A stretch of 64,000 bases of DNA from Cyanidioschyzon merolae. Lineage: Eukaryota. The DNA is taken from the NCBI GenBank assembly GCA_000091205.1, contig AP006500.2. One strand, written 5' to 3'. Position 1 is the stretch's first letter; each line of letters opens with the position of its first letter. Positions 2,290-59,650 of this stretch are shown here, piece by piece. The position numbers and the translations under genes are program-made. The notes under the pieces were generated by a model, which saw only the letters and a list, made by a program, of their open reading frames with translations, made no database searches and was not told where the DNA came from.

Positions 2290-3366
2290 TCGATTCTGGA
2301 ATACCGCCACCAAACGCCGTTCGAAAGTCGAACGACGCCAACGGTGTACAGTAGTGGCGAGTGACCCGCCCTAGACAAGACGTCTCCAAGTGACGTGCAG
2401 ACGCCATCCGATCTTTCTCGACCGGCCACCTACGACTACTGCTCCCAACTTCTTCTCATATAGTTCGACTTTTGGAGGTTGTTCCACAAAGTTCTCCCGT
2501 GTCAACTCTGGAGGTCTCGTCTCTATCACCGCACATCTCCTTATATTGGTAGCGGCATTAAGGTCTCGGTTCACAAACTCCATACGTTTCTTGCAATCAT
2601 TGGTTGTACGTACTCATGCGAGTAGCCCTCGAAGTCTCGCTCTCCTTTCCATTTGCTCCTCCGTCAGCGGTCCATACTTTTTTATATCTTCAGGGCTCCG
2701 CTGACACTTTTCCATCTCCACTGTCTGAAGTGTACACCCCTGTTCATGGTGTGTATACGAGGTTCGGAACTCATCTACAGGTATCGTAACGAAACGCCGT
2801 GCGCCCTCCTTGTACGTTCTTGTCGTTGGAGCTGGCGTAGTCCCTTTTTGGGTCTTCCATCGCCTTGCTCCGTACGCTACGACGAGCCTCTGATTTCCAT
2901 CCTCCTTCAGGTCACTCAACTGATTGAAAAAATTCGCGAACGCCCGCTGCTCCCCACAATACAAATTCATTCGCAAACGAGCCCGCCGGGGCTTGGTATA
3001 CTCCTCCCACAGCGCATCCCAATGGGCAACGCGAACTTTCATGAATTTCCGAAAAGCTGCAAAGTCCGCGCCTCGTCTAGTCACCTCGCTCAAAGCTTCC
3101 AGGTGCTCTTTCATTCCTGAGTTCCAAGTCTCGATTTTCTTCCTCGCATTCATTATACCGGATTCTCGATAGTATCTTGCTCTCGAGAGCCTCAAAAGAC
3201 GCATGTCTTTCTGACGTAAGTTACCATCAGTCCCATCTTCCGCACACTTTGGTACAGAGATGGTTATGATGCTCGTATTCCCAGGGTCCGCGCCAACGAC
3301 AAAGTCGTTATCCTGCACCTCCTGCATCGCAGGATCCGCATCATTCTCATCTACATCCTTCGCCAG
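2290..3366 (-). mobile_element. Fanzor/TnpB-like element, copy 1 (5-prime truncated; RuvC core plus conserved 3-prime tail)
   Basis: Minus-strand ORFs 2614..3327 and 2371..2583 together encode VVGADPGNTSIITI (RuvC-I), VAYGARRW...IPVDEFRTSYTHHE (RuvC-II/ZnF region) and FVNRDLNAATNIRRC (RuvC-III). The 3-prime tail 2290-2410 is nearly identical to the tails of copies at 52.3 kb, 56.2 kb and 59.4 kb. The reading frame is broken between the two ORFs. Confidence 0.75.
2371..3327 (-). pseudogene. Fanzor-like RuvC nuclease remnant (frameshifted, N-terminal region missing)
   Basis: The RuvC-I/II/III motifs are present, but the frame changes between ORF 2614..3327 and ORF 2371..2583. Only the C-terminal ~300 aa of the ~800-aa family protein is represented. 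Confidence 0.7.
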
Positions 3367-4420
3367 GGGCGAAGCCGAGGACGGACCAGGAAGCGGGCCC
3401 GACGGCGCTGGAGGTGCAGAAGAACGCGTTTGTCGTTGGCGTGGATCCCGGGAACACCCACATCGTTACCATCGCAGCACCCAAGCGTGAGGAAGATGGC
3501 TCTGTCGGCAACTTACGTCAGAAAGACATAAGTCTGTTGAAGCTCTCATGAGCGAGATATTACCAAGAATCCGGTATAATGAATGCGACGGAGAAAAGTG
3601 AGACATCGAACTCAAGAGTGAAGGGAATTTGGAAGCGATCAGCCGGGTGACGAGCCGCGGAGCCGACATTGAAGCGTTTCGAGAGGTTATGAGCATTCAC
3701 GCAGCTGATGACGAGAGCTTTTGGAAAGAATGCACAAAGTTCAGGTGGGCTCGTCTGCGTATGAACCTGTACTGTAGGAAGCAGCGAGCATACGCCAGCT
3801 TTTTCAATCAATTGAGCGCCCTCAAGGAGGACATGAGCCAAAGGCTCGGAGTAGCATACGGGGCAGGGCGCTGGATGACCCAAAAAGGGTGTACACCAGC
3901 TCCAACGACAAGAACGTACAAGGAGTGCGCACATCGTTATGTCGAAATACCTTTAGATGAGTTTCGAACATCTCATACACACCACGAGCTGTGTTGTACA
4001 CTTCAGAGGGTCGCGATGGAGAAAAGCCAGCGGCTCGCTGACGGAAATGCAAATAGCAAGGAGGGCGAAACTTCGAGGACTACTCGCTTTGGTTCGTAAA
4101 ACTAATGATAGGAAGAAACGAATAGAGTTCCTGGACTGAGACTTTAACGCCGCCATCAGTATAAGGAAATGTGCAGTACTGGAAAGAAGACCCCCGGAGT
4201 TGGCGAGAGCCAACTTTGCGGGGCAACCTCTTAAAATGGAGTGATACGAGAAGAAGTTGAAACCAGTAGTAGGTGGCCAGTTGCTGAACGCCAGCACAGT
4301 CGTCTGCACATCATTGGGTAGACAATCGGTCTACGGCGGACGGTGTGAGAAACGCCACCATTGTACACTGGCTTTCCAGCGTTTCTCTTTTGCAAGGCGT
4401 TTGGTGGTGTTTCCAGAGAC
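3367..4420 (+). mobile_element. Fanzor/TnpB-like element, copy 2, inverted relative to copy 1 (heavily frameshifted pseudogene)
   Basis: The plus strand from 3406 encodes EVQKNAFVVGVDPGNTHIVTIAAPK, matching RuvC-I. ORF 3629..4099 carries VAYGAGRWMTQKG...IPLDEFRTSHTHHELCC. From 3957 the sequence encodes RIEFLD, and after a frame change FNAAISIRKCAVLERRPPEL. There are multiple frame breaks. A diverged version of the conserved tail lies at 4280-4400 as the reverse complement of the other copies' tails. Confidence 0.65.
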
Positions 4421-36989: not shown

Positions 36990-38950
36990 ACGCTACCGGC
37001 AACGAGAAGGCCGCGAATCCGACGCCGCCACGGGCGATATTCGGAGGTGGTGGCGGCTGCGGCCGCCCGCCGTTGCCAGGATTTCTGGCGGTACGCCTCC
37101 CGGTCTACTTGGACTAGGCACCTGCTGCTGATTTTGTTTTCTGCTTATATGATATCACCTTAAGAGGTTGCCCGACAAAGCTGGCTCTCATTAGCTCCGG
37201 GGGTCGCTTAATCATCAACACGCATCTTTCTATATTGATAGCGGCGTTAAAGTCTCGGTTCACAAACTCTATACGTTGATTGCCGTCGGTAGTTGTACTC
37301 ACCAGTGCGAGTAGTCCAGGAACTTTTGCCCTGCTTTCCATTTGCTGTTTGGTCAGCGCTCCGTACTTTTTTATATCCTCAGAGTTCCACTGGCACTTTT
37401 GCATCTCGACCCTTTGGATTGTACACCTCGGCTCGTGGTGTGTATGTATGACGTTCGGAACTCATCTATCGGTATTGTGAGAAAACGGTGTGCGTACTCG
37501 TTGTACGCTCGTGTCGACGGAGCGGGCGTAGACTCTTTTTCGGACGCCCAGTGCCCTGATCCGTACGCTACTATAAGCCTTTGTCTCTCGTCTTCGTTCA
37601 GGGCACTCAACTGGTTGAAAAAGTTGGCAAATGCACGCTGCTTCCCATAGTATAAGTTCATGTGCTGACGAGCCCACCGGGCGGCTTGGTATACTCCTTT
37701 CACAGCTCCTCGTCATGAGCAGCGCGAAGTGGTATGAATTCTCAGAGGGCTCGAAAGTTCGCTCCGCGACTCGTCATTTTGCTGAACTCCTCCCTGCTTA
37801 CATCGAACTTCGGACTGATCTCTTTCATGATGCCGTAAAGGGCTGCGGAGTCGATTGTCACAAAATGTGCATTGATCTCGCATAACGGAACGACATGGAA
37901 GCGCTTACCCGGAAACGCAGCCATTCGTTTCTCCGACTCTTCATTTGCTTGCACACCTGGTTCCATCTCCGCCTTGCGTTCGAGTTCTCGGTCCAAAAAC
38001 ACGAAAGGGCGCAGGATTAGGCGATAGCATCTTTCTTCATCTTTTTTCAACGCTGGCATCTTTTTGTGCTCAGTTGACAAACCCTAGGACCGTGCGGCGC
38101 TCTTGGATGGCCACATGGAGTAGAGAAGCTTCATTCCTTCTCCTGCGTGACGTCTTCCTGTCGACGAATTCGATCTTCTGTTCATGCTGGCGATCGTCCG
38201 AAATGCCATTGATGATGGTCCGTATCCTTTTGCGAGAGAGGCGCGGGTAGAGTCCAAACATGGAACGTATCATGAAACGTTCGAGGTTCATGTTCAAATG
38301 GTTTTTCAGATTCGTGAGACACTTTTTAGACCCGTATTCATACATATTATCGTGACCCCTGTATCGAGTACTGTTGGAGCGGAATTTGGCGTAATTTTCG
38401 TGGAGGCCCTGCACTCGCTCATTTCTCCTCGACATTTCATATGTGCCCAGTATCAAGTGGCGAATGAAGGTCTTGTTGAAAAATTCCTTCGGAATCTCGG
38501 TTGTTTCCATATGCGTCACGTCGCGATTCGTCTCCCACACCAAATGCACGAGTCCTGAAGAACCGTTTCGAATGCTACTGGAGTAGGACGCCACACGCTT
38601 TCTGATAGTCTCGTCCATCCTTGTCTCGTACGGATCCTTGCAATGTCCAAGAAGACAGGGTTTCACTACCATCTCGATGCACTGTCGTCTTTCTTGCAGC
38701 CATTGACGTCTGGCCTCCTGCCTTAGCTTCTTCGTGTTGTCTCGTTCATCCGGGATCGGCTCTGTTTTCGTTTCTTTCCGTCAGCCGGCGACAGTGGTCC
38801 TCCAGGATCCTCCACTTCCATGTCCATAGCTTGCCTTTTTACTTTTGAAAAAGAACGCACTTTAGACACTTCTGCTATAGACCCCGGAAAATCACTTGAG
38901 TAGACTATACTGGAGATTAAAGTACAATGGAGATGAAAAACTATGCTTCG
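36990..38950 (-). mobile_element. Fanzor/TnpB-like element, copy C (RuvC core partly deleted; N-terminal extension retained)
   Basis: Minus-strand ORFs 37114..37404 (FVNRDFNAAINIERC = RuvC-III), 37371..37703 (VAYGSGHW...IPIDEFRTSY), 37742..38080 and 38070..38672 are homologous to the N-terminal ~400 aa of the 52-55 kb copy, at roughly 55% aa identity. For example, HENYAKFRSNSTRY...KKCLTNLKNHLNMNLERF aligns with HENYAEYRFERTRY...KKYLTNLKNHLTMYPERF. The flanking ends are homologous to copy A at both LE (38760-38950) and RE (36990-37130). The RuvC-I region is absent. Confidence 0.7.
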
Positions 38951-40628
38951 ATATGACTTTAACGCGTATGCACCTTGTACGTTAGATAAACACGCTAAGT
39001 GTAAGGATCGCATTTCCCTTCAATCACGAGATGCGCTTCCTATCTCACGCCTGCCAGATATGATGCTGCGAGTATCGACTGCACTATATAGAAAATAGAA
39101 CAGAAATTATCCAATAACTAGCAACGAGATTGGGATTCCTTTCCGTCTCTACGATAAACGTTAAAAGGAGGAAAACGTTTCCACACGTTCAAAAGTCTAC
39201 CGTATAGGCGGAAGGTCCAGCGACCCGGAAGAGTGCGCCGGGCTCGTGCTCCATACCCCCAATAGCAGGTGCTTTAGAGCGATCTGAGCAGCTCGTATCG
39301 AGCGCAATTCATTCTGGGATTCGAAGCGGGTAGTACGCGCCTGCGCGTCGCCCTGGTCTCCTTAGATATCGATTCGCGCTGTCGCAGGCAGTAGGTCCGT
39401 CTGCGCAGCTTGCAGGCTCCCAGCATGATCATTAGCCCTGATCCCGTGTCAGGTGTTGCGTTATTCGAGTCGACACCCTCAGTGGTATGGCGAAGCCGTT
39501 TTGTCTCCGTGCAGCACCCGCTCCAGCGATATAGGCGCTATGGTAGGTTCCCAGGACAGGCACTTGGCTTACGATAGAACGCAAGAAACGACCGGTGCGT
39601 CCGAAAGAATGCATAAGTAATGGAGCTTGAAGGTAGATGCTTCATGATGGACGCTTTCCAGATCATCAATACCCGTCCCGCAGCAAGGGATCCATGGTCA
39701 CGATAAACGTTTCGTCATCTGAAAAAATGACAGCGGCTGCACGAAAGATTGCGCAAAGCGTTGGCTGATCGCCGCATATTGTTTGTTGGATGCGAGCATG
39801 TTGTCGATGCGTCTACATGGGTACGGCAATGGCAGCGCCTATTTGTTTGAACGCACTATGATTCCTGAAAGCAAGTCTGAGCGGCTAGTCGCACGACCTG
39901 TGGACTTGTGCAGCATGACGAATGCTGGTCTTGATACTGATCGTCATCGCACCGTTGGGGTTCCCAGGCTCGGTTCAACGATCCCACTCGATTCGAAAAA
40001 TCGATTCTGGAGCGTCCAAGCAGCACGTGCCTACTCAAGAAACCCTCATGGAAGGCACCAGCGCGCTTCTTCGCTCCACAGAGCCGACGAAGGTCAGTGG
40101 CAGCAAGGCGGTATCGATGCTGATATCACGGGCGGAAGATCTCACGAACGTAAACAGCCCCCGTTTAGCCATTTTTGACACGGAGGAAGCCCTGTCACAA
40201 CGCCACGGTTCCGCCCAGTGTGCCAGTGAAACACGGAAACCGCGATGCATGTTTCCGAGCTTCGCACATCTCATCAAGGCTTTCACGTTTGTTCTGCGTA
40301 GTCCTCTGAAAAATTTCCGGTGTGCCTTGGAGCCGGCCCCGGTTTCCATTTACAAAATAGAGGATTCTGTAAGCCAAAGGTCTTCCTATGCGTACAACAG
40401 CGCTGCTGGTCGGATGTGTTTCAGCAGTATCGAACACCTTGCGCAGCGTTGCGAGGCGAGAGCCCCGTTCACGGCACCCGATGCGGTCGATAGCCCTGTA
40501 TCATCATCCACGTGAGCATCCCGCACAACATTAACCGGCTTCGCAAGGCAGCACTAACCGTGGAATACGCACCGGCATCCGGTTCACGGACTCTGCAAGA
40601 TACATTCACTGCGCGTCAGTGCAGGCCG

Positions 40629-48411: not shown

Positions 48412-51400
48412 GTGTCGTTCGCGGTGGCAATGGCGTTCGTTACTTTCGGGGTCGTGTCTGGAGGCACCGGGCGGCAACCGCTAGCTGACAGGTCACCGGC
48501 GTTCTTGAATCAGCACCCAAGAAAGACAAGCCGATCGGTGCGGTGTCGACGGCGAAGATTCTCGCGTAAAGTGTCTCGAAGATGTCTGCTGAAGCTCTGC
48601 AGCGTTGCTGAACGACAGTCATCCGACTCGGTGCGACGAGAGCAGGGACAGAAGCGGGGCAGCAGTAGCAGCGCCAGCAGCCGTGATGAGCGCTATGCGC
48701 GGAACGCAGCGGAACAGCGCCAGGCAAGCGACTCTGTATCGACGGAGACGCGAGCCCGAGTGTCTCGAGCGCTCCTACAGGGCGCGCAGGGGGTGGGCCT
48801 CGGCCTCTACTGGATTGCTCGGCAAGCGGTGCGTGTATGTGTGCCGATGGCTCGCTCGGCGTTTAGCCAGCTGTCAACGCTTGTGCAAGACCATTCCAGT
48901 CGCGCGTTCACCTCAGTGGGGGTCCAATCACAGCCAGAACCGCATCATAAGCCGTACGTTGCATCTGAAGCGGACGAGGCAGCGCGGGCGCGGCCTAACG
49001 ACACAGCCGTTGGTGCGGATCGTGCTCAGCGGCGATCTAATCATAAGAAACGGGGGCCACGTTCAGGTCCACCATCGGGAGCGAATGCTCCAGAGCAAGC
49101 AGACGAGATGTCAGCTCGACTGCGGAGAAAGTACCTTCGATCGTTTGGGAGCATTCCGGAAGTTGTACTCTTTGACCTTGTCGCCGAATGTGAAATGCGA
49201 AAGCAATTTGCGCTACCAGAGGAGACTCCATCAAATATGTCGCTTTTAGGGCAGCGAGCCTGCTATATCCCGTATGAGCTGCAGCGCATTATTTTCGACG
49301 AAATTTTGACGCCAGATTTTGCCGCCTCTGACGCTGACCGCGATCTGTTTCAGAGCAGCAATACATCCATTCCGCTCGGCGCCAAACACACGTTGCGAGC
49401 TACAGACGGCTCAGCGGCGTCCACCCCGAGAGCACCCGAGGTCGCTGTGCCGGTTCCCGTTCATATCATGGATTCGCTGGTGGCGGCTGTGGCACCCTGG
49501 AGCGCCGGCACTGGGAGTCCGGGGAGCGCACCAAAGGCGGCAAATTCGCCGAATGATTGGAGTCAAACTGCGACAGCGCCTCGAGTCGGGGTCCAGGGCG
49601 AGTCGCCGGCATCTACTTCCAACCTGGACGATATGGTACCTGCAGCAGCAGCAGCAGCGGCAGCAGCAGCAGGGCAAGTATCCGTGGATTCTTCCGCCCG
49701 CAGGGGCAGCATGCTGTACATCCCGATATCGGCGCTCGGGAGCTTGTGGCAAGCCATCTCGGCAATGAGTGCGGGCGGACGCAAACGGCGCGAGGAGGCG
49801 CAACGTATTCGTACGTACTCGAATGCCGCCGACGCTATGGCTCGCGAGGATGCCGTTATGGCGGGTCTCGCTGGCGCAGACGGTGGAAGCACCATGGCCT
49901 CGGCATTTGCAACAGCGAGCGCCATTATGGCGAGCACACCGACGCGATCGCCATCGATACCCGTGCAGGGCGCCGAGGCTGGAACTACCGCTAGTACGCG
50001 CGAAACGGAACAGAAGGCCTCGCGTCCAACAAATGGATCCGTGGAATCAATCGAGGTATTGAGCAGACCGCAGGCATCGGCTGCCAACTTGGGCAATCAG
50101 CAGAAGCGAGATCGCACGGAGTCGAAAGAGGGGACGGGTGCGAAGCAGAGCGCACCAGTGAACCCGTCATCAGCGTCTGCTGCATCCGCTGCAGCTACCA
50201 GTACAGAAGTAGCTGCAGCGGATGCAGCAGAAAGTCCTCTGTCGAAAGACAAGACGAGAAACTGGTGGTCGACGCTTTTCTCGTTTACTTGGCCACGCCC
50301 GCGGAACGCTGTCGACTCGGGATCTGCGACTGCGACTAACTCGGAGGATCATGCAATTGAATCCATCCAGCGCCTGTTGCTTTCACGACATTACGGGGCA
50401 GGCGCTGGCCATGGCCCTGTGGATGCTGCCGTCTTCGATGAGCTCGTCGATCGAGTGGAGCAGCTGACGCTTCGCGCTGCAGCAGAAGCGGCCATGGCGA
50501 TTCGCACGCGAAAACAAGCCATTGCATTTCTGGAAGAGGTAGGTGTGGCACCGTTGTTGAATGCACTGAGCATGACGGACTCGCTGCAGCTCTCGAGGCC
50601 GGATGCTGGACGCCGCAGGAACAGCAACAGCAACACCAACCTAGACGATGAAACCGCATCACAGAGAAAGCGCCCACAACAAGAACAGCAACGTGAAGCC
50701 GCCTTCACGGTATCCCTAGCTGTGGCTGCACTCGCAAATCTGACCAACGTCTTGCCTCGCTGCAAACCGCAAATCCTTCGTTATCCAGGCCTCTTGGATG
50801 GTCTGTTGCGTATCTTGGAAGCACCGGTAGCCGGAGAGTCATGGGAGATGCAAGGCAAGTGGAGCGCATGTATGCTCATCGGCACCCTGATGATGGATGC
50901 TGCCACGAGCGATCGTGCCCTCTTCTTCCGGAATCGTCGACTGGTTCGCGTGCTCGAGTCCATGGCAGGCGGCACACGGGTCGGCTACCCGGAGGATGTT
51001 GCACGGGCATCGCGTCGGGCGCTCGCTTGTCTGGGCGTGCATCACTGGAGGCCGCGCGTTCGAGGCCAGCGCGGTTTGCGCATCCTTGCACTTGACGGAG
51101 GTGGCACTCGGGCGCTCATGTCTTTCGAGATTCTGAAGCACCTAACCAAATTGACTGGCTGCCAGTTGCATGAAATGTTCGATATCATTTGCGGAACCTC
51201 GACGGGGGCGATTATTGCCGGCTCGTTGGGGATTCGCCGGCGTCCAGTTGAGGAGGTCGAGAGCCTCTACCGTGAACTAATCGGCAAAATTTTCGCCAAA
51301 AAGCTGAGCAGTGCGCCGAAAATGTTGCTCACTCGGGCCTACTACGATACGGACTTGTTTGAGAGCATTCTGAAACGTGAGGCAGGCTCATTGCGGATGA

Positions 51401-52284
51401 TTGATTCCACCATGGACCGGGATATGAACTACGTGTTCTTCGTAAGCTCCGTGATGAATCGACGTCCGCACCAGCTGCATCTGTTTCGAAACTATTGCCA
51501 CGCACCAGGCCAGGAGTCCAGATACCCAGGGACTGTGGATGCAACCCTATGGCAGGGTATGCGGGCCTCGTCGGCGGCTCCGACGTTTTTTTCGGAAATT
51601 GTATTGAATGGACTCATTCACGCAGATGGAGCTCTGGTTGCGAATAATCCCGCAGGGGTGGCAGCGCACGAGGCACGCCGCTTGTTCCCGAATGTGCCTA
51701 TCGAGCTCTTGGTGAGCGTGGGAACCGGAGTCGCCGAGAAGACTAGCCCTCTATCGCCGCTAAGCACCACGGACAGTGGTGTGTCCACGGGCACCAGAGA
51801 GGGCAGCGGTGGCGACGGCGGTGCCTCAACCGAGAGCGAAGCTGCGAGTGCGCTTCGTGAAGCTGCCACGACTTCGGCGATTTCCGCAAGTGGTGGTGAT
51901 GGTGCAGATGCCGCAGCTGCTGCCGTCCCGAGCCGAATGAGCTGGAACGACGTGATCAACTCGATTGTGGACTCTGCAGTCGGCACCGAGAGTGTGCATC
52001 ACATCCTGGAAGATGTGTTGCCTGCAGATGTTTATTTTCGATGCAATCCAGAGATCAGCGTGATGAATATTGATGAGGTTCGTCCCGGCAAGCTCATGGA
52101 AATGATTCGATGTGCACAGGACTACATCGCCGCGAATGCTGATCGCTTTGATGAGTTAGCGGCACGGCTGCGCCCGAAAATGCCCCAGAATTTACTAGAA
52201 CGGATCCGTTTTGAGCTGCAACAGGAGGCCAGTCTGATTCTCGACTTGGACGATGCACGGGAAGGGCCACTTCCTGCGCTTTAG
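48412..52284 (+). CDS. Patatin-like phospholipase (iPLA2-like) with long N-terminal low-complexity and ARM/HEAT-like region, 1290 aa
   Basis: The patatin catalytic motifs are the oxyanion-hole LALDGGGTRAL, the nucleophile elbow GTSTGAI (GxSxG) and the catalytic Asp in IHADGALVANNPA (DGA/G). They are preceded by repeats such as LANLTNVLPRC...LLDGLLRILEA. The N-terminal ~600 aa is low complexity, and the true start may be downstream of 48412. Confidence 0.85.
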   Translation: MSFAVAMAFVTFGVVSGGTGRQPLADRSPAFLNQHPRKTSRSVRCRRRRFSRKVSRRCLLKLCSVAERQSSDSVRREQGQKRGSSSSASSRDERYARNAAEQRQASDSVSTETRARVSRALLQGAQGVGLGLYWIARQAVRVCVPMARSAFSQLSTLVQDHSSRAFTSVGVQSQPEPHHKPYVASEADEAARARPNDTAVGADRAQRRSNHKKRGPRSGPPSGANAPEQADEMSARLRRKYLRSFGSIPEVVLFDLVAECEMRKQFALPEETPSNMSLLGQRACYIPYELQRIIFDEILTPDFAASDADRDLFQSSNTSIPLGAKHTLRATDGSAASTPRAPEVAVPVPVHIMDSLVAAVAPWSAGTGSPGSAPKAANSPNDWSQTATAPRVGVQGESPASTSNLDDMVPAAAAAAAAAAGQVSVDSSARRGSMLYIPISALGSLWQAISAMSAGGRKRREEAQRIRTYSNAADAMAREDAVMAGLAGADGGSTMASAFATASAIMASTPTRSPSIPVQGAEAGTTASTRETEQKASRPTNGSVESIEVLSRPQASAANLGNQQKRDRTESKEGTGAKQSAPVNPSSASAASAAATSTEVAAADAAESPLSKDKTRNWWSTLFSFTWPRPRNAVDSGSATATNSEDHAIESIQRLLLSRHYGAGAGHGPVDAAVFDELVDRVEQLTLRAAAEAAMAIRTRKQAIAFLEEVGVAPLLNALSMTDSLQLSRPDAGRRRNSNSNTNLDDETASQRKRPQQEQQREAAFTVSLAVAALANLTNVLPRCKPQILRYPGLLDGLLRILEAPVAGESWEMQGKWSACMLIGTLMMDAATSDRALFFRNRRLVRVLESMAGGTRVGYPEDVARASRRALACLGVHHWRPRVRGQRGLRILALDGGGTRALMSFEILKHLTKLTGCQLHEMFDIICGTSTGAIIAGSLGIRRRPVEEVESLYRELIGKIFAKKLSSAPKMLLTRAYYDTDLFESILKREAGSLRMIDSTMDRDMNYVFFVSSVMNRRPHQLHLFRNYCHAPGQESRYPGTVDATLWQGMRASSAAPTFFSEIVLNGLIHADGALVANNPAGVAAHEARRLFPNVPIELLVSVGTGVAEKTSPLSPLSTTDSGVSTGTREGSGGDGGASTESEAASALREAATTSAISASGGDGADAAAAAVPSRMSWNDVINSIVDSAVGTESVHHILEDVLPADVYFRCNPEISVMNIDEVRPGKLMEMIRCAQDYIAANADRFDELAARLRPKMPQNLLERIRFELQQEASLILDLDDAREGPLPAL

Positions 52285-52500
52285 GGGATGGACAAGCCAC
52301 CACCGCCGTTCTAAGTCGAACGACGCCAACGGTATACAGTAGTGGCGACCGGCGCCCTAGACGAAACGTCTCCAACTGACGTGCAGACGCCTCCCCGCCT
52401 TTTTGGACCGGCCACCTACTACTGCTTCCAACTTTTTCTCGTATAGTTCGACTTTGAGAGGTTGTCCAATAAAGTTCCCTCTTCATGACTTTGGAGGTGT
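52285..52500 (-). ncRNA. Predicted omega-RNA (guide RNA scaffold) region of Fanzor-like copy A, overlapping the C-terminal codons and the 3-prime tail
   Basis: The ~200 nt at the 3-prime end of the element is far better conserved at the DNA level between copies (2290-2410, 52285-52480, 56160-56280, 59385-59500) than the ORFs are. It contains the block gcgtctgcacgtcagttggagacgtttcgtctagggcgcc and the block gccactactgtacaccgttggcgtcgttcgac (minus-strand reading). In TnpB/Fanzor systems the omega-RNA maps here. Confidence 0.4.
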
Positions 52501-54794
52501 TTTCTCCAGCACCGCACATCTCCGTATATTGATAGCGGCATTAAAGTCTCGGTTCACAAATTCCATACGTTTCTTCCCATTGGTAGTTGTACTTACTAGT
52601 GCACCTAGTCCTCGCACTTTCGCTCTACTTTCCATTTGCTCCTCCGTCAGCGGTCCATACTTTTTCATATCCTCAGGGCTCCTCTGGAAATTTTCCATAT
52701 CCACTCTCTGAAGTGTACAACCCAGCTCATGGTGTGTGCAGGACGTTCGAAACTCATCTACAGGTATTGTAACAAAACGCCTTGCGCACTCCTTGTACGT
52801 TCTTGTCGTTGGAGCTGGCGTAGTTCCTTTTTGGGTCTTCCAGCGCCCTGCTCCATACGCTATTACGAGCCTTTGAGTCTTGTCTTCTTTGAGGGCGCTC
52901 AACTTATTGAAAAAGTTCGCGAATGCCCGCTGCGTCCCACCGAATAGATTCATTCGCAAACGAGCCCACCGGGGCTTGATATACCCCTCCCACAGCGCAT
53001 CCCAATGGGCAACACGAACTTCCATGAATTTCCGAAAAGCTTCAAAGTCCGCGCCTCGGCTCGTCACCTCGCTCGAAGATTCCAGGTGATCCTTCATTCC
53101 TGCATTCCATGCAGCAATTTTCTTCCTTGCATTCATTATACCGGACTCTCGATAGTATCTTGCTCTCGAGAACCTCAACAAATGCATGTCTTTCAGACGT
53201 AAGTTGCCGTCAATGCAATCTTCCGCACACTTTGGTGCTGCGATGGTAATGATATTCGTGTTCCCAGGGTCCATGCCAATGACAAAGTCGTTATCCTGCA
53301 CTTTCTGCGCCGCAGGACCCGCCTCGTTCTTTTCTTCATGCTTCGTCGCGTCAAGCATAAAGGCGTTATCCTGCACCTCCTGCATCACAGGATCCGCCTC
53401 CTTCCCAACTTCATCCTTCGTCACATCAACGATAAAGTCGTTACCCTCAATCTCCTGCGCCACAGGATGCTCCTCTTTGTTTTCTTCATGCTTCGCCGCG
53501 TCAACGACAAGCTTGTTATCCTCCACCTCCTGCGTCGCAGGTTCCGCCTCCTTCTCATCTCCATCCTTCGCCACGTCAACGAGAAAGTCATTATCCTCCA
53601 CCTCCTGCGTCGCAGGATACACCTCTTTGTTTTCTTGATCCTTCGTCACGGGTGCAGCCGAGTGAGGGACTGGCCGATCTCTCTTCAACCGCCGATAGTG
53701 TGCACACAAGGCTACTCCATCGGTTTCGATCATCCCAGTGAACAACTTTTGCTTGCTCACTCTCAGGCGTTTGAAATCGAAGATGTTCTTCCAGTACGTC
53801 TTCCGGTTTTCACCGGAGAATTCCTCCCTGCTGACACTGAACCCCGGACTGATCTCCTTAAAGATGCCGTAAAGGACGCCGGAGTCGATAGTCTCAAAAC
53901 TTGAATTGATCCTGGACAACGGATCAGCGTGGGAGCGATTCTCCAGAAGCGCAGCCTTCCCTCTCTCCGACTATTCGTTTTTTCCACACCCGGCTCCATG
54001 TCGGCCTTGCGTCCGTGCTTTCGGTTCAGAAACATGAAACAGCGCAGGATTAGTTGATAAAATCTCTCTTCGTGTTTTTTCATATTAGGTAATTTTCCTG
54101 TTGGACTGAGTAGCCCCAAGACCGCACGGTGCTCTTGAATAGTCGCGCGGATTACGGAAGCTCCATTTGTGCTCCTGCGTGATGTCTTCTTATCGACAAA
54201 TTCGATCTCATCTTCATACTTTCGATCGTTCGTGATGCCGTTGATCATCCCCCATATTCCTTTGCGAGAGATGCCCGGGTAGAGTGCAAACACGGCGCAT
54301 ATCATGAAACGTTCCGGGTACATAGTTAAATGGTTCTTCAGATTCGTGAGGTACTTCTTCGGCCCGTAGGCGTAAATACACGAGTCAACCCTGTATCGGG
54401 TACGCTCGAAGCGGTATTCGGCGTAGTTTTCGTGGAGAGCGTGCACTAGCACATTTTCCTTCCGCGCTTCCCCTGTACCAAGCATCAGGTGACGAATAAA
54501 GGTCTTGTGGAAAAACTCGTCTGGAATCTAGACCGTTTCCATGTGCGCCACATCGCGATACATCTCCCTCGCCAAATGCATCAGTCCTGACGACGTCTTG
54601 ACAATACTCTTGGAGTACGAGTCGACACGTTTTTTGATAGCGTCCCGCAACTTTTCCTTGTAGGGATGCTTGATATGTCCAAGAAGAAAGGTTTTCACCA
54701 CCATCTCGTCGTACAGCCGTCTTCCTTGCCGCCTTCGACGTAGGGCCTTACCGTTTCGGTCCTTCTTCTCTTCTTTTTGTTCTGGACTCGGCAC
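52483..54794 (-). pseudogene. Fanzor-like RNA-guided endonuclease homolog (TnpB-like RuvC nuclease with N-terminal extension), disrupted by one in-frame stop and one frameshift as assembled
   Basis: Motifs as for the parent element. D-x-NAA-x-NI is the TnpB/Cas12 RuvC-III signature and G-x-D-x-G-x-T/N the RuvC-I signature. The lesions could be real or could reflect unannotated introns or assembly error. Confidence 0.7.
53270..53650. repeat. About six units of a ~63-bp tandem repeat inside the copy A ORF (encodes acidic 21-aa repeats EVxDNxFxVDxxKxExxKEAxPA)
   Basis: Visible as repeated ...tcaacga(c/g)aa(a/g)(g/c)t(c/t)(g/a)tt(a/c)tcct(g/c)cacctcctgc(g/a)tc(a/g)caggat(c/a)c(g/a)cctcc.. units. 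The last unit runs straight into the RuvC-I motif [13 protein letters not shown]. Confidence 0.8.
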
Positions 54795-55238
54795 TATATT
54801 TGGGTTTTTTTGGCAGCCGGCGACACTGGGCCTCCAGGATCGTCGACTTGCTATTTACTAGCTTTTCCGTTTTTTAGTTTTTTTTTGAAAAAGAACACTC
54901 TTTGAACGCTTCTTTTATATTCTACGAATAAACACTTGACTAGACTTGTTTGAGGGCTGGAACAAAAACGAACTGAAAGACTGTACCTGGCTAAGACCTC
55001 AACAGAAAACCAACTTTTTACAGCTGAACACCACGCTATTGATACCAATCGAGTTTCCCTTTAACGGCGACGCGGCGCTTTCGGAACTCGATCCGCCGCA
55101 TCTCCCGGCTGGATCCTGCTGCGGTTCAGAGACCGCAAGTCGAAAAGTGTGTGGCTGTAGTTGAAGGCAAATATGGTGCACCACGCGGCAGTAAACAACA
55201 GAAATAGGTTGTGAGACGCGACAGTCGTGCGATGAAGT

Positions 55239-56030: not shown

Positions 56031-56159
56031 ACGATTTGAAATCGGGAGATATCAGTGCTGCTTGCGAATGCTGTCGGGGATGTAGCTCTGCTGCGCTCCG
56101 TTGGTTACATGGACAGGAAATTTGCGGATTCTTAAAAGATAGATACGTGACGCCGCTGC

Positions 56160-58640
56160 TAGCGAGCCCCTTTCAAAACAAAAACGCTGCCGCTATCAGT
56201 ACAAAAGTGGCTACCAACGCGCCCTAGACGAAACGTCTCCAACGGACGTGCAGACGCTTCCCAGTCTTTTTGGACCGGCCACCTACTACTGCTTCCAACT
56301 TTTTCTCGTATAGTTCGACTTTGAGAGGTTGTCCAACAAAGTTCTCTCGTGTCCACTCTGGAGGTCTTTTCTCCAGCATCGCACATCTCCGTATATTGAT
56401 TGCAGCGTTAAAGTCTCGGTTCACGAATTCCATACGTTTCTTGCCATCGTTCGTTGTACTCACCAGTGCGAGTAATCCCCGAACTTTCGCCCTCCTTTCC
56501 ATTTGCTCTTCCGTCAGCGGTCCGTACTTTATTATATACTCAGGGCTCCTCCGACGCTTTTCCATCTCAACCCTTTGAAGTGTGCACCCCAGTTCATGGT
56601 GTGTAAACGATGTTCGGAACTCATCTATTCGTATCGTAACGAAACGCCTTGCGCACTCCTTGTACGTTCTTGTCGTTGGAACTGGCGTGCTCCCTTTTCC
56701 GGGTACCCAGAGCCCTGCTCCATACGCTACTACAAGCCATTGGCTCGTCCCCTTTGAGGGTGCCCGACTCATTGAAAAAGTTGGCAAATGCACGCTGTTT
56801 TCCGCAGTACAGATTCATATGCAGACGAGCCCACCTGAGCTTCGCGTACTCTTCACACACCTCCTCGTCATGAGAAACGCGAATTTTCATGAATTTCGGA
56901 AGAAAAAAAGAAAGTTCAATCGACGGCTCGTCACGTGCCTGATCGCTTCCAGATTCTCCTTCACTCTTGCGTTCCATTTCTCACTTTGATTCCTCGCATT
57001 CATCATTGCTTGTTCTCTGTACTAACTCTCTCTCGAGAACTTTAAACGACGCATGTCGCTCTGGCATAAGTTGTCGTCAGCGCCATCTTCCAAACGTTTG
57101 GGTGCTACGATGGTTATTACATTCGTGGTCCCGAGGTTAAGGCCGACGACAAGATCGTTATCCTGGGGATTATACGTGCCAGGGCCCGTCTTCTTGTGTT
57201 CGTGCTTCGGCAAGGGCGACAATGTAGATGAGGTAGGACGATCTGCCTTCAAGCGCTGATAGTGTACACATATGGATTTCCCATTGTAATCGATCGTCCC
57301 CGTGAATGCCATTTTTTGCTCGTTTTGAGGCTCTTGAAATCGAAGATATTCTTCCAGTACGTCTTCCGGTTTTCACCGGAGAATTCCTCCCTGCTGACAC
57401 TGAACACCGGACTGATCTCCTTAAAGATGCCGTAAAGGACGCCGGAGTCGATAGTCACAAAACTTGAATTGATCCTGGACAACGGATCAGCGTGGGAGCG
57501 ATTCTCCAGAAGCGCAGCCTTCCCTCTCTCCGACTATTCGTTTTTTCCACACCCGGCTCCATGTCGGCCTTGCGTCCGTGCTTTCGGTTCAGAAACATGA
57601 AACAGCGCAGGATTAGTTGATAAAATCTCTCTTCGTCTTTTTTCAAATTAGGTAATTTTCCTGTTGGACTGAGTAGCCCCAAGACCGCACGGTGCTCTTG
57701 AATAGTCGCGCGGATTACGGAAGCTCCATTTGTGCTCCTGCGTGACGCCTACTTGTCGACAAATTCGATCTCATCTTCATGCATGCGATCGTTCGTGATG
57801 CCATTGATAATTGCCCAGAATCCTTTGCGAGAGATGCCCGGGTAGAGTGCAAACACGGCGCATATCATGAAACGTTCCGGGTACATAGTTAAATGGTTCT
57901 TCAGATTCGTGAGGTACTTCTTCGGCCCGTAGGCGTAAATACACGAGTCAACCCTGTATCGGGTACGCTCGAAGCGGTATTCGGCGTAGTTTTCGTGGAG
58001 AGCGTGCACTAGCACATTTTCCTTCCGCGCTTCCCCTGTACCAAGCATCAGGTGACGAATAAAGGTCTTGTGGAAAAACTCGTCTGGAATCTAGACCGTT
58101 TCCATGTGCGCCACATCGCGATACATCTCCCTCGCCAAATGCATCAGTCCTGACGACGTCTTGACAATACTCTTGGAGTACGAGTCGACACGTTTTTTGA
58201 TAGCGTCCCGCAACTTTTCCTTGTAGGGATGCTTGATATGTCCAAGAAGAAAGGTTTTCACCACCATCTCGTCGTACAGCCGTCTTCCTTGCCGCCTTCG
58301 ACGTAGGGCCTTACCGTTTCGGTCCTTCTTCTCTTCTTTTTGTTCTGGACTCGGCACTATATTTGGGTTTTTTTGGCAGCCGGCGACACTGGGCCTCCAG
58401 GATCGTCGACTTGCTATTTACTAGCTTTTCCGTTTTTTAGTTTTTTTTTGAAGACGGACGCGTTTCTTACGTGTCTACTATAAACCACGAAAAACACTTG
58501 ACTAGATATGTTTGAGGTGTGAAACAAAAACGAACTGAAAGACTGTACTTGGCTACGACCTGAACGGAAATCCAACTTTTTTCGGTAGAACAACACGCTA
58601 CTGATCAGGATGGCGTTCCCCTTCGACGAAGGCATGCGCA
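56160..58640 (-). mobile_element. Fanzor/TnpB-like element, copy B (rearranged, internally deleted)
   Basis: Minus-strand ORF 56224..56793 carries VAYGAGLW...IRIDEFRTSFTHHELGC...FVNRDFNAAINIRRC and the full C-terminal tail ...GKRLHVRWRRFV. The fragments 57022-57682 and 57749-58357 are near-identical to 54000-54900 of copy A. ORF 58091..58357 is 88/88 aa identical to ORF 54528..54794. Confidence 0.75.
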
Positions 58641-59384
58641 TCGTGTCAGTTGACTGACTGATCTCCCAGTTGCGCTCATTTAGCGCAATGCATCCACTGC
58701 GCGCGACGCTACTCCGATCGATGAAGGACACGTGTCCGATACCCCGCCTTGGCACATGCGTGTTCGCATCCCACTGCAGCCAAAATAAAGTATCGTAGAT
58801 CGCAAACTCACGTAGAATGATCTCTTGCTACAGGCTCTGTCGCTGGTGCCCATTGCAGTACCGCCCTGACATACGTGGAGATGTAGGGGCCTGGCACGAT
58901 ACCTCGCGATGCTTCTAACAAAAGCATCGCGTTCTCTGCGGCTTACACTTGTGTGGATAAGGTACACAACACTGTACTCAATAGAAATTTCGTTAATTTT
59001 ATTGATCGTATATAAACAAGACACGGAATGATTCCTGACCAAGGATATTCGTTTAATCAATATGCTTGTTATGCATGCCGCACCGACACTGGAATAAGGA
59101 CCTGAACTGAAATTTGCATCTATCCGGCGTCATGGGCTGGAACTGATACCCGTTCAAGTCATTGCCATCCTGCCGTGGTTGTCCAAGTAATGGTGCCTGC
59201 TTCGTCCTCCGGATCCGGCGATCTTGGCAGAGGCAGAGCACGTAGGTAGCGTCCAAGTCTGCCACGAGGTTTGAGCCTTGCATCTCGCCTGGCACGATCG
59301 TGGCACTTGACAAAAGCGCATACTGTATTCTGGTCTACTCTATCAGATTATTTTCAAGAGCCTAACCCGTACATCGAGCCCGAA

Positions 59385-59650
59385 CGAGGCACCCCTGGAA
59401 AGAAACGCCTTTCGAAAGTCGAACGGCGCCAGCGGTGTACAGTAGTGGCGAGTGGCCCGCCCTAGAAATGACGTCTGCAACTGACGTGCAGACGCATCCA
59501 AAATAAGATACCACCTCAGGAAATTTCCTTATACCTCCTCTACGGTATTCGTCGGCGAGCTACGTGGAAGTTCGTCTACGATTGTTGTGATCTCTGAGCG
59601 CAGCACTGCGGAACCCTTGGCACCAATTACTGATGAGGTTGTTGATGGGA
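59385..59650 (-). mobile_element. Isolated 3-prime tail fragment of the Fanzor-like family (copy D; no adjacent nuclease ORF)
   Basis: The stretch ctggaaagaaacgcctttcgaaagtcgaacggcgccagcggtgtacagtagtggcgagtggcccgccctagaaatgacgtctgcaactgacgtgcagacgcatcc is near-identical to the tails at 2290-2410 and 52285-52400. Similarity decays by ~59650, and no RuvC-encoding ORF is seen between 59650 and 59880. Confidence 0.65.

Follow-up and report, generated by a model that had tools for sequence, protein, structure and literature searches.

Does the short block shared by the 3′ ends of a family of decayed nuclease genes encode the guide-RNA scaffold of that nuclease? The question is raised by a 64,000-nt stretch of Cyanidioschyzon merolae DNA (contig AP006500.2, assembly GCA_000091205.1), hereafter the window, in which a preliminary description had proposed an omega-RNA candidate overlapping the last codons of several related open reading frames (ORFs). 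Six pieces of the repeat family, here named copies A to F, lie in the window, and the block in question is referred to as the tail. In our judgement the tail is the 3′-terminal module of a multicopy Fanzor1 family, and most likely one encoding an omega-RNA scaffold. We favour this reading because, in location, length, strand and boundary, the module is as expected from published Fanzor1 systems; a scaffold here would be the best explanation, an unproven one and, given what known Fanzors lead one to expect, no surprise.

Nuclease identity

The window ORFs carry the RuvC motifs DPGNTN, DEFRTS and NRDFNAAINIR (copy D has DPGNTN, DEFRTS and NRDFNAA), and a D-E-D triad (D421, E592, D659) is invariant in the homologue alignment A7. 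A profile built from 44 diverse family members had as its sole matches in the PDB PpFz1 from Parasitella (2e-22), SpuFz1 from Spizellomyces (1.5e-15) and GtFz1 from Guillardia (2.4e-7). The protein that was modelled is not a window copy but a relative, P0120, of 699 amino acids (aa), 46% identical to the window ORF. Its AlphaFold 2 (AF2) model, computed with the family alignment, reached a pLDDT (predicted local distance difference test) score of 85.9 and a predicted template modelling (pTM) score of 0.82. The top seven Foldseek matches of this model in the PDB were all Fz1 structures (E 1e-18 to 1e-16, template modelling (TM) score 0.53-0.75), with Cas12 proteins ranking next, in agreement with a Fanzor/TnpB fold of WED, REC, RuvC and TNB domains. 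Because of these profile and fold matches, the assignment of the ORF to homologues of TnpB-type RNA-guided nucleases, specifically to Fanzor1, can be regarded as secure on sequence and model grounds.

Simpler searches returned little. A single-sequence PDB search with the window ORF gave only noise, the single-sequence AF2 model was unusable (pLDDT 34), and scanning the window ORFs against Pfam and NCBIfam yielded only a sub-threshold hit to PF07282 (E 0.024). Pfam scans of five homologues found no match, though their precomputed annotation is PF26935.

Position and extent of the tail

A word-indexed search returned 166 close relatives, nearly all from Joint Genome Institute (JGI) metagenomes, and an exhaustive search with P0120 gave 1362 clusters at 50% identity. 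A scan of metagenome contigs found 474 relatives, from which 79 loci (77-100% protein identity) were kept, corresponding to about 45 distinct insertions. One source of window-family relatives is the sample set Ga0078972, a Yellowstone metagenome (PMC8986864).

When the 45 insertions are compared with one another, the 3′ edge is sharp in each: the number of other copies that align goes from 44 down to 0 less than 100 nt from the stop, and the flanks past the right end are unrelated between copies. This boundary bears out the proposal that the tail sits at the right end of the repeat unit; the tail also overlaps the last codons of the ORF. With 35 related tails as input, a covariance model places the tail on the minus strand at 2304-2415 in copy A (120.5 bits, E 1e-33), 52293-52401 in copy D (110.3 bits; homology to other copies ends at 52296), 59395-59506 in copy F (101.6 bits; homology begins 40 nt before the stop position) and 56156-56268 in copy E (88 bits), and on the plus strand at 4288-4410 in copy B, where it is diverged and inverted (34.6 bits, E 1e-8). 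These five matches (E 1e-33 to 1e-8) agree with the positions first given for the tails; nothing further in the window was significant, and the tail of copy C went undetected. The sequence blocks quoted in the preliminary description are also present, being the 3′ ends of the copies read on the plus strand, and the C-terminal peptide it named, RPPEWTRENFVGQPLKVELYEKKLEAVVGGRSKKTGKRLHVRWRRFV, does end copy E, directly before the stop codon.

In copy A the tail, delimited at 2308..2415, comprises the last ~14 codon positions and ~65 nt past a stop-equivalent TAG (2371..2373, minus strand), which aligns with the stop of copy E, the frame of copy A being already broken upstream. Conservation had been thought to reach 80-200 nt beyond the stop, which proved too long, as it ends ~62-76 nt past it. 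Identity is 0.72 from +1 to +30 and 0.60 from +31 to +60, and is at background (0.29, 0.24) from about +61. The last conserved bases, GGCGTT, lie at about +62, and one subfamily runs on to TTTCCAGGGG, at about +76; beyond GGCG, identity falls to 0.34 and then to 0.24. The 10-15 nt past GGCGTT are A-poor, G/T-rich and unalignable, with even base composition farther out (35 copies), and TGGTG or GGCGG is frequent at positions +3 to +16 counted from GGCGTT. In copy A this fuzzy right-end zone covers 2296..2312 (minus strand) and is followed by unrelated flank, the putative guide.

Constraint at the nucleotide level

According to the preliminary description, nucleotide conservation is much higher in the tail than elsewhere in the ORF. 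No overall excess is found: among A, D and E, mean pairwise identity is 0.78-0.90 in the last 40 codons vs 0.72-0.95 in the 3′ half of the ORF, and across 47 sequences the corresponding values are 0.78-0.88 vs 0.79-0.91. What stands of the claim is constraint in the last codons and in islands of non-coding sequence. Over the upstream 110 codons, identity is 0.89, 0.91 and 0.72 at codon positions 1, 2 and 3. The final 60 codons differ: identity at the third (synonymous) position is higher there (0.784 vs 0.717, p=0.026), that of position 1 is lower (0.844 vs 0.887), and positions 1+2 exceed position 3 by 0.073 instead of 0.182 (Mann-Whitney p=0.0035). In the tail, the blocks GGCG...CGCC, CCACTACTGTA and GAGGCGTCTGCACGTCAG reach an identity of at least 0.9, vs 0.36 in the adjoining loop and 0.31 in the linker after CCACTACTGTA, itself mostly at 0.8-0.99. 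Such patchy conservation of non-coding sequence is not expected from neutral decay.

Several of the longest related ORFs end early, in NF[IF]G: a CAA codon has become TAA or TAG there, 35 codons ahead of the regular stop. Examples are locus L016 (stop at 3406-3408) and proteins P0005 and P0014, along with L031 and L045. Since these longest ORFs stop 35 codons early, the terminal codons are weakly needed as protein, and from the reading frames the last 35 codons seem dispensable. Nucleotide-level constraint overlapping a weakly constrained C-terminus is the sound core of the first observation.

Predicted folding of the tail

Three hairpins can be drawn in the tail, all on the minus strand in copy A and together pairing 84% of alignment cells. 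The most upstream, SL-a (2379..2405), joins GGCGUCU and AGACGUC over a 13-nt loop and has a 7-bp core inside the last 12 codons. It is found in the minimum free energy (MFE) folds of A, D, F, L014 and L063, has 84.5% of its cells paired and shows one compensatory change (C-G to U-A in L034). H1 (2356..2370), directly past the stop, pairs GGCG with CGCC across a variable loop of 5-9 nt; pairwise identity is 0.93-0.94 in its arms vs 0.36 in the loop, and 95% of its cells are paired. It is devoid of covariation because its stem is invariant. H2 (2313..2339), GGCGUCGUUCGA-CUU-UCGAACGGCGUU, has 11-12 bp and ends at the last conserved bases GGCGTT; two loci, L032 and L078, have G-C replaced by U-A on both sides of it, and a second subfamily has a hairpin of different register in its place, CGUUUUUC-UUUU-GAAAGGCG. 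Between H1 and H2 lies the motif ACUACUGUACAC (2344..2355, minus strand), predicted to be single-stranded and left unpaired in most MFE folds, with most columns at 0.8-0.99 identity.

Folding is strongly strand-asymmetric. The sense fold of copy A has -44.8 kcal/mol (z -3.28), vs -29.4 kcal/mol (z -1.37) for the antisense, which is thus 15 kcal/mol weaker. Sense z-scores of seven tails range from -1.7 to -4.7: A (-3.3), F (-3.1), L014 (-4.7) and L063 (-3.3) are joined by D, L013 and L032 with weaker values of -1.7 to -2.1. The fold is rich in G-U pairs, and the strand asymmetry that results from them fits an RNA in the orientation of the ORF.

Some further pairings were considered and set aside. 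The closing helix GGCGUC/GGCGUU suggested by RNAalifold is weak, with three G-U pairs and no covariation. Pairing of the G/T-rich end with ACUACUGUACAC slightly exceeded shuffled controls (p=0.004), but it is non-specific because a control with the motif reversed did equally well (-10.45 vs -10.72 kcal/mol). Locus L032 contradicts a long-range pairing of AAAGUCGAAC with GUUCGACUUU: compensation for its change is found in the local hairpin only. In a subset of tails (D, L067, L055, A), GUGGCG is complementary to the CGCCAC of H1.

Possible functions of the tail

The module measures ~105-120 nt and comprises the last ~14 codons (possibly up to ~60) and 62-76 nt past the stop. As an omega-RNA, the scaffold would be co-transcribed with the 3′ end of the nuclease mRNA or released from it by processing, the nuclease protein would bind it, and the RNA would run on into 15-20 nt of flanking DNA that act as the guide; these steps, RNA production, protein binding and the use of the flank, are what we infer from comparison with known systems. 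The start of the putative guide would fall 62-76 nt past the stop, at ~2296-2313 in copy A and ~52296 in copy D, near the first estimate of the scaffold/guide boundary but slightly inside it. Of the omega-RNA interpretation, the Fanzor1 ORF, the sharp right end, the overlap, the position-specific constraint and the sense-only folding are supported by the results, and the covariation is not.

Several results weigh against such a scaffold. Covariation-supported structure, a check set beforehand, came out negative with both RNAalifold and shuffle tests: the RNAalifold consensus has -6.2 kcal/mol with a covariation term of -0.02, the hand-drawn three-hairpin structure scores 0.112, below the average of 0.121 for shuffles (445 in 500 equalled or exceeded it), and the alternative register of H2 does no better. 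With a mean column identity of 77%, and with copies that are closely related and for the most part pseudogenes in decay, the test is weak and of low power. SL-a is broken at several pairs in 6-10 of the 35 copies. Rfam gave 0 matches at the gathering score over the window and 0 at E<=1 over 2150-2750. Applied to distant Fanzor1 loci (L001-L006, L088-L090), the tail model found none, its best match being misplaced with an E of 0.92, which makes the module subfamily-specific; a shared 'hairpin + UAC[UA]GUA' noticed by eye in the tails of P0120, L088 and the window was not recovered by the covariance model. To this are added an overall tail identity no higher than that of the ORF, and ragged 5′ ends with two alternative extensions, given which neither a left end nor a target-adjacent motif (TAM) was definable. 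Finally, an open frame of at least 600 aa is kept in only 3 of the 45 related insertions, and much of the variation is therefore neutral decay.

Other functions of the same sequence have to be considered. The tail could be mainly a cis-acting DNA signal, a right terminus recognised by the copying or moving machinery, for instance as a subterminal hairpin. A sharp 3′ boundary combined with ragged 5′ ends would suit such a signal, as would H2 ending just 2 nt before the last conserved bases, the fact that the 'group 1' composite described below carries a directly oriented ~110-nt tail at its 5′ end too, and the same-orientation tandems. Recognition of double-stranded DNA has, however, no need of strongly strand-asymmetric, G-U-dependent folding, the constraint reaches ~180 nt into the ORF, and neither a terminal inverted repeat (TIR) nor a target-site duplication was found for the window family; distant relatives, moreover, move in DDE_3 elements with ordinary TIRs, 125-240 nt past the stop and unrelated to the tail. 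We consider a mainly DNA-level role unlikely, and it would not exclude an omega-RNA, given that the right end of an OMEGA system (the name stands for obligate mobile element-guided activity) serves both roles.

The tail might also have no special function, its likeness between copies reflecting recent descent from one master sequence and its hairpins being incidental. The lack of excess identity over the ORF, the absent covariation, the predominance of pseudogenes and the failure to detect the tail in other Fanzor1 subfamilies all fit this explanation, which is nevertheless distinctly improbable: identities of 0.93 vs 0.36 at adjacent non-coding positions are unexpected under uniform neutral decay, and the altered balance of codon positions (p=0.0035), z-scores as low as -4.7 on the sense strand and a boundary common to 45 insertions also speak against it. 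An ordinary 3′-untranslated-region element of the mRNA, such as a signal for 3′-end formation or stability of the nuclease transcript, would likewise lie directly past the stop, on the sense strand and with stable hairpins. It is hard to reconcile with a constraint that starts within the coding region, a conserved unit that ends exactly at the repeat end and a copy F whose tail has no ORF in front, canonical signals were not noticed, though no search aimed at them was made, and we consider it very improbable.

If the tail is an omega-RNA, scaffold and guide boundaries would be defined for a large Fanzor1 clade, whose 1362 clusters carry only the label DUF8286; we found no tested member of this clade, no systematic search having been made. 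The codon-position shift and the early-stop variants would illustrate a guide-RNA gene taking over the end of a nuclease reading frame. Were the Yellowstone set a hot-spring sample, as presumed, a thermotolerant, compact eukaryotic RNA-guided nuclease would be of interest to genome editors. For the window itself the direct biological consequence is small, since the window elements are dead relics.

Copies in the window and their surroundings

Copies A (2295-3365, minus strand) and B (3367-4417, plus strand) form a head-to-head palindrome spanning 2295-4417, with its centre near 3366 and arms 71.6% identical, and both are 5′-truncated where they meet at the junction. Copy A retains a Fanzor1 remnant of 237 aa (2614..3327, minus), truncated at its 5′ end and frameshifted near its 3′ end. 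The other pieces are all on the minus strand. Copy C (37093-39039) is a degenerate Fanzor1 copy with a 'group 2' 5′ region, and copy D (52296-55075) holds Fanzor1 remnants of 478 aa and 240 aa, mutually out of frame, within 52483..54485. Copy E extends from 56199 to at least 58910 and has an ORF at 56224-56793 ending in RRFV, with its stop codon at 56224-56226; copy F (59403-59499) is the tail piece without an ORF in front. Every copy is interrupted or truncated (frameshifts, stops, truncations): the window copies are pseudogenes, and the system is dead in this window.

Just upstream of the RuvC-I motif, copy D contains about five tandem 75-nt (25-aa) units (53277-53650), the number of which varies between homologues (P0003, P0005, P0014). 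Its right end (52284-52296) lies 12 nt beyond the stop of a convergent ORF of 1290 aa, patatin-like when named by eye from its translation (48412-52284). Like the DEAD-box-helicase-like ORF at 111-1655, named in the same way, this host ORF is long and uninterrupted; together with a GC content of 55% this suggests an intron-poor eukaryote as host.

Antisense ORFs of ~100 aa cover the Fanzor 3′ ends of copies A (2390-2704, plus), D (52403-52711, plus), E (56270-56578, plus) and B (3953-4309, minus). They are probably due to chance, because the same frames hold 2-3 stops on average in the 45 related copies.

Element anatomy and related elements

The 5′ side of the family is ragged. A common core begins near a GCGCTCA-G-TGAGCGC palindrome, ~300 nt upstream of the ORF start, and is preceded by either of two alternative extensions of 0.7-0.8 kb, 'group 1' and 'group 2'. 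Upstream of copy E, the ~0.8-kb 'group 1' extension has copy F as its 5′ end (59395-59506 with 58642-59400), and the same arrangement is found in L041 (1-1018) and L050, giving a composite with a tail at both ends. Copies also occur in same-orientation tandems (F-E-D in the window; L048, L071). The ~700-nt 'group 2' repeat lies upstream of about ten Fanzor copies (e.g., L080 254-1000, L014 3749-3920, L046 5996-6476 and, upstream of copy C, ~39040-39300) and is found alone and inverted as well (inverted in L033, 383-991); it may be a separate element. Two local rearrangements touch the tail itself: in L028 (703-800) a 50-nt segment is tandemly duplicated, CCGCCACTAC...GGCGTTT occurring twice vs once in the sister locus L036, and in L038, L041, L042, L047 and L050 repeats of the GCGCGCACACACGCACGAATGCG type replace the tail directly past the ORF.

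Distant members of the clade are built differently. The genes for P0120, P0121, P0123, P0124 and P0125 each lie directly downstream of a DDE_3 transposase gene; the proteins of this group are 46-53% identical to the window ORFs and carry the precomputed annotation DUF8286/PF26935. These elements terminate in inverted repeats, ...CATGAGTATA or ...CTCGAGTATA, 125-240 nt past the stop, as read at P0120, P0123, P0124 and P0125 (P0121 has too little downstream sequence), and six insertions of the P0120 element are identical as far as the inverted repeat and diverge beyond it. No TIRs were found in copies D and E. A tblastn search for DDE_3 homology gave no hit, either across the window or within the 5′ extensions; the extensions were accordingly dropped as candidates for degraded DDE_3 genes. 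A stretch of the copy A flank, GAATCGATGCAAGTCG, was considered as a relic of a mariner-type TIR; similar sequence occurs only in L034, consistent with chance. DDE_3 homologues do lie near, and outside, some family copies (L080 5436-6086; L048 4267-5081, minus strand; L010 5478-6295), ~32% identical to the transposases linked to the distant Fanzor1 genes, and searches for inverted repeats around these three gave nothing convincing.

This putative copy anatomy, lacking transposase and inverted repeats, exact at the 3′ end and ragged at the 5′ end, with a two-tailed composite and tandems, is unusual and noteworthy. The exact 3′ end, the ragged 5′ ends, the G/T-rich stretch, the tandem arrays and the two-tailed composite would together point to propagation defined by the 3′ end. 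As a long shot, the DDE_3 transposase and inverted repeats known from its relatives may have been lost from this lineage, which would still have multiplied to dozens or hundreds of copies in this way; RNA-mediated or rolling-circle copying, or nuclease-driven homing or gene conversion from the omega-RNA end, would then be the candidates, rather than cut-and-paste.

Comparison with known systems

The window protein is homologous to SpuFz1, GtFz1 and PpFz1 by sequence profile and predicted fold and has the D-E-D RuvC motifs, although the canonical CxxC...CxxC zinc-finger motifs of the target nucleic-acid-binding (TNB) domain are not evident in its family. The DDE_3 (Tc1/mariner/IS630-type) carriers of Fanzor1 belong to the same protein clade and also have a non-coding stretch, of 125-240 nt, between stop and right end; unlike the window family they possess a linked transposase and TIRs, and the tail model misses their non-coding stretch.

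Among published systems, the scaffold of SpuFz1 is 75 nt long, lies between stop codon and 3′ repeat (right end) and carries a guide of 14-15 nt; the GtFz1 omega-RNA overlaps 17 codons (PMC10432273). Scaffold sizes are 75 nt in SpuFz1, ~55 nt in PpFz1 and ~135 nt in GtFz1 (Saito et al. 2023, PMC10432273; Xu et al. 2024, PMC11423790), and across three Fz1 structures stem-loop 1 (SL1) consistently has 7 bp while the remaining scaffold is variable (PMC11423790). The window family differs from these Fanzor1 OMEGA systems in having no detectable inverted repeats or linked transposase, in local copies that are pseudogenes and in a tail that, by inspection, has no sequence similarity to published omega-RNAs. 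As in those systems, a conserved non-coding module of comparable size abuts or overlaps the 3′ end of the ORF and stops at the right end; the core of SL-a also has 7 bp, a resemblance only.

With bacterial TnpB (IS200/IS605, e.g., ISDra2) there are differences: the window protein groups with Fanzor1 instead, the host is eukaryotic and TnpA is not present. The logic of the bacterial omega-RNA, or reRNA, is the same as that proposed here, with a scaffold encoded where the nuclease gene has its 3′ end and the transposon its right end, and a guide drawn from the flank.

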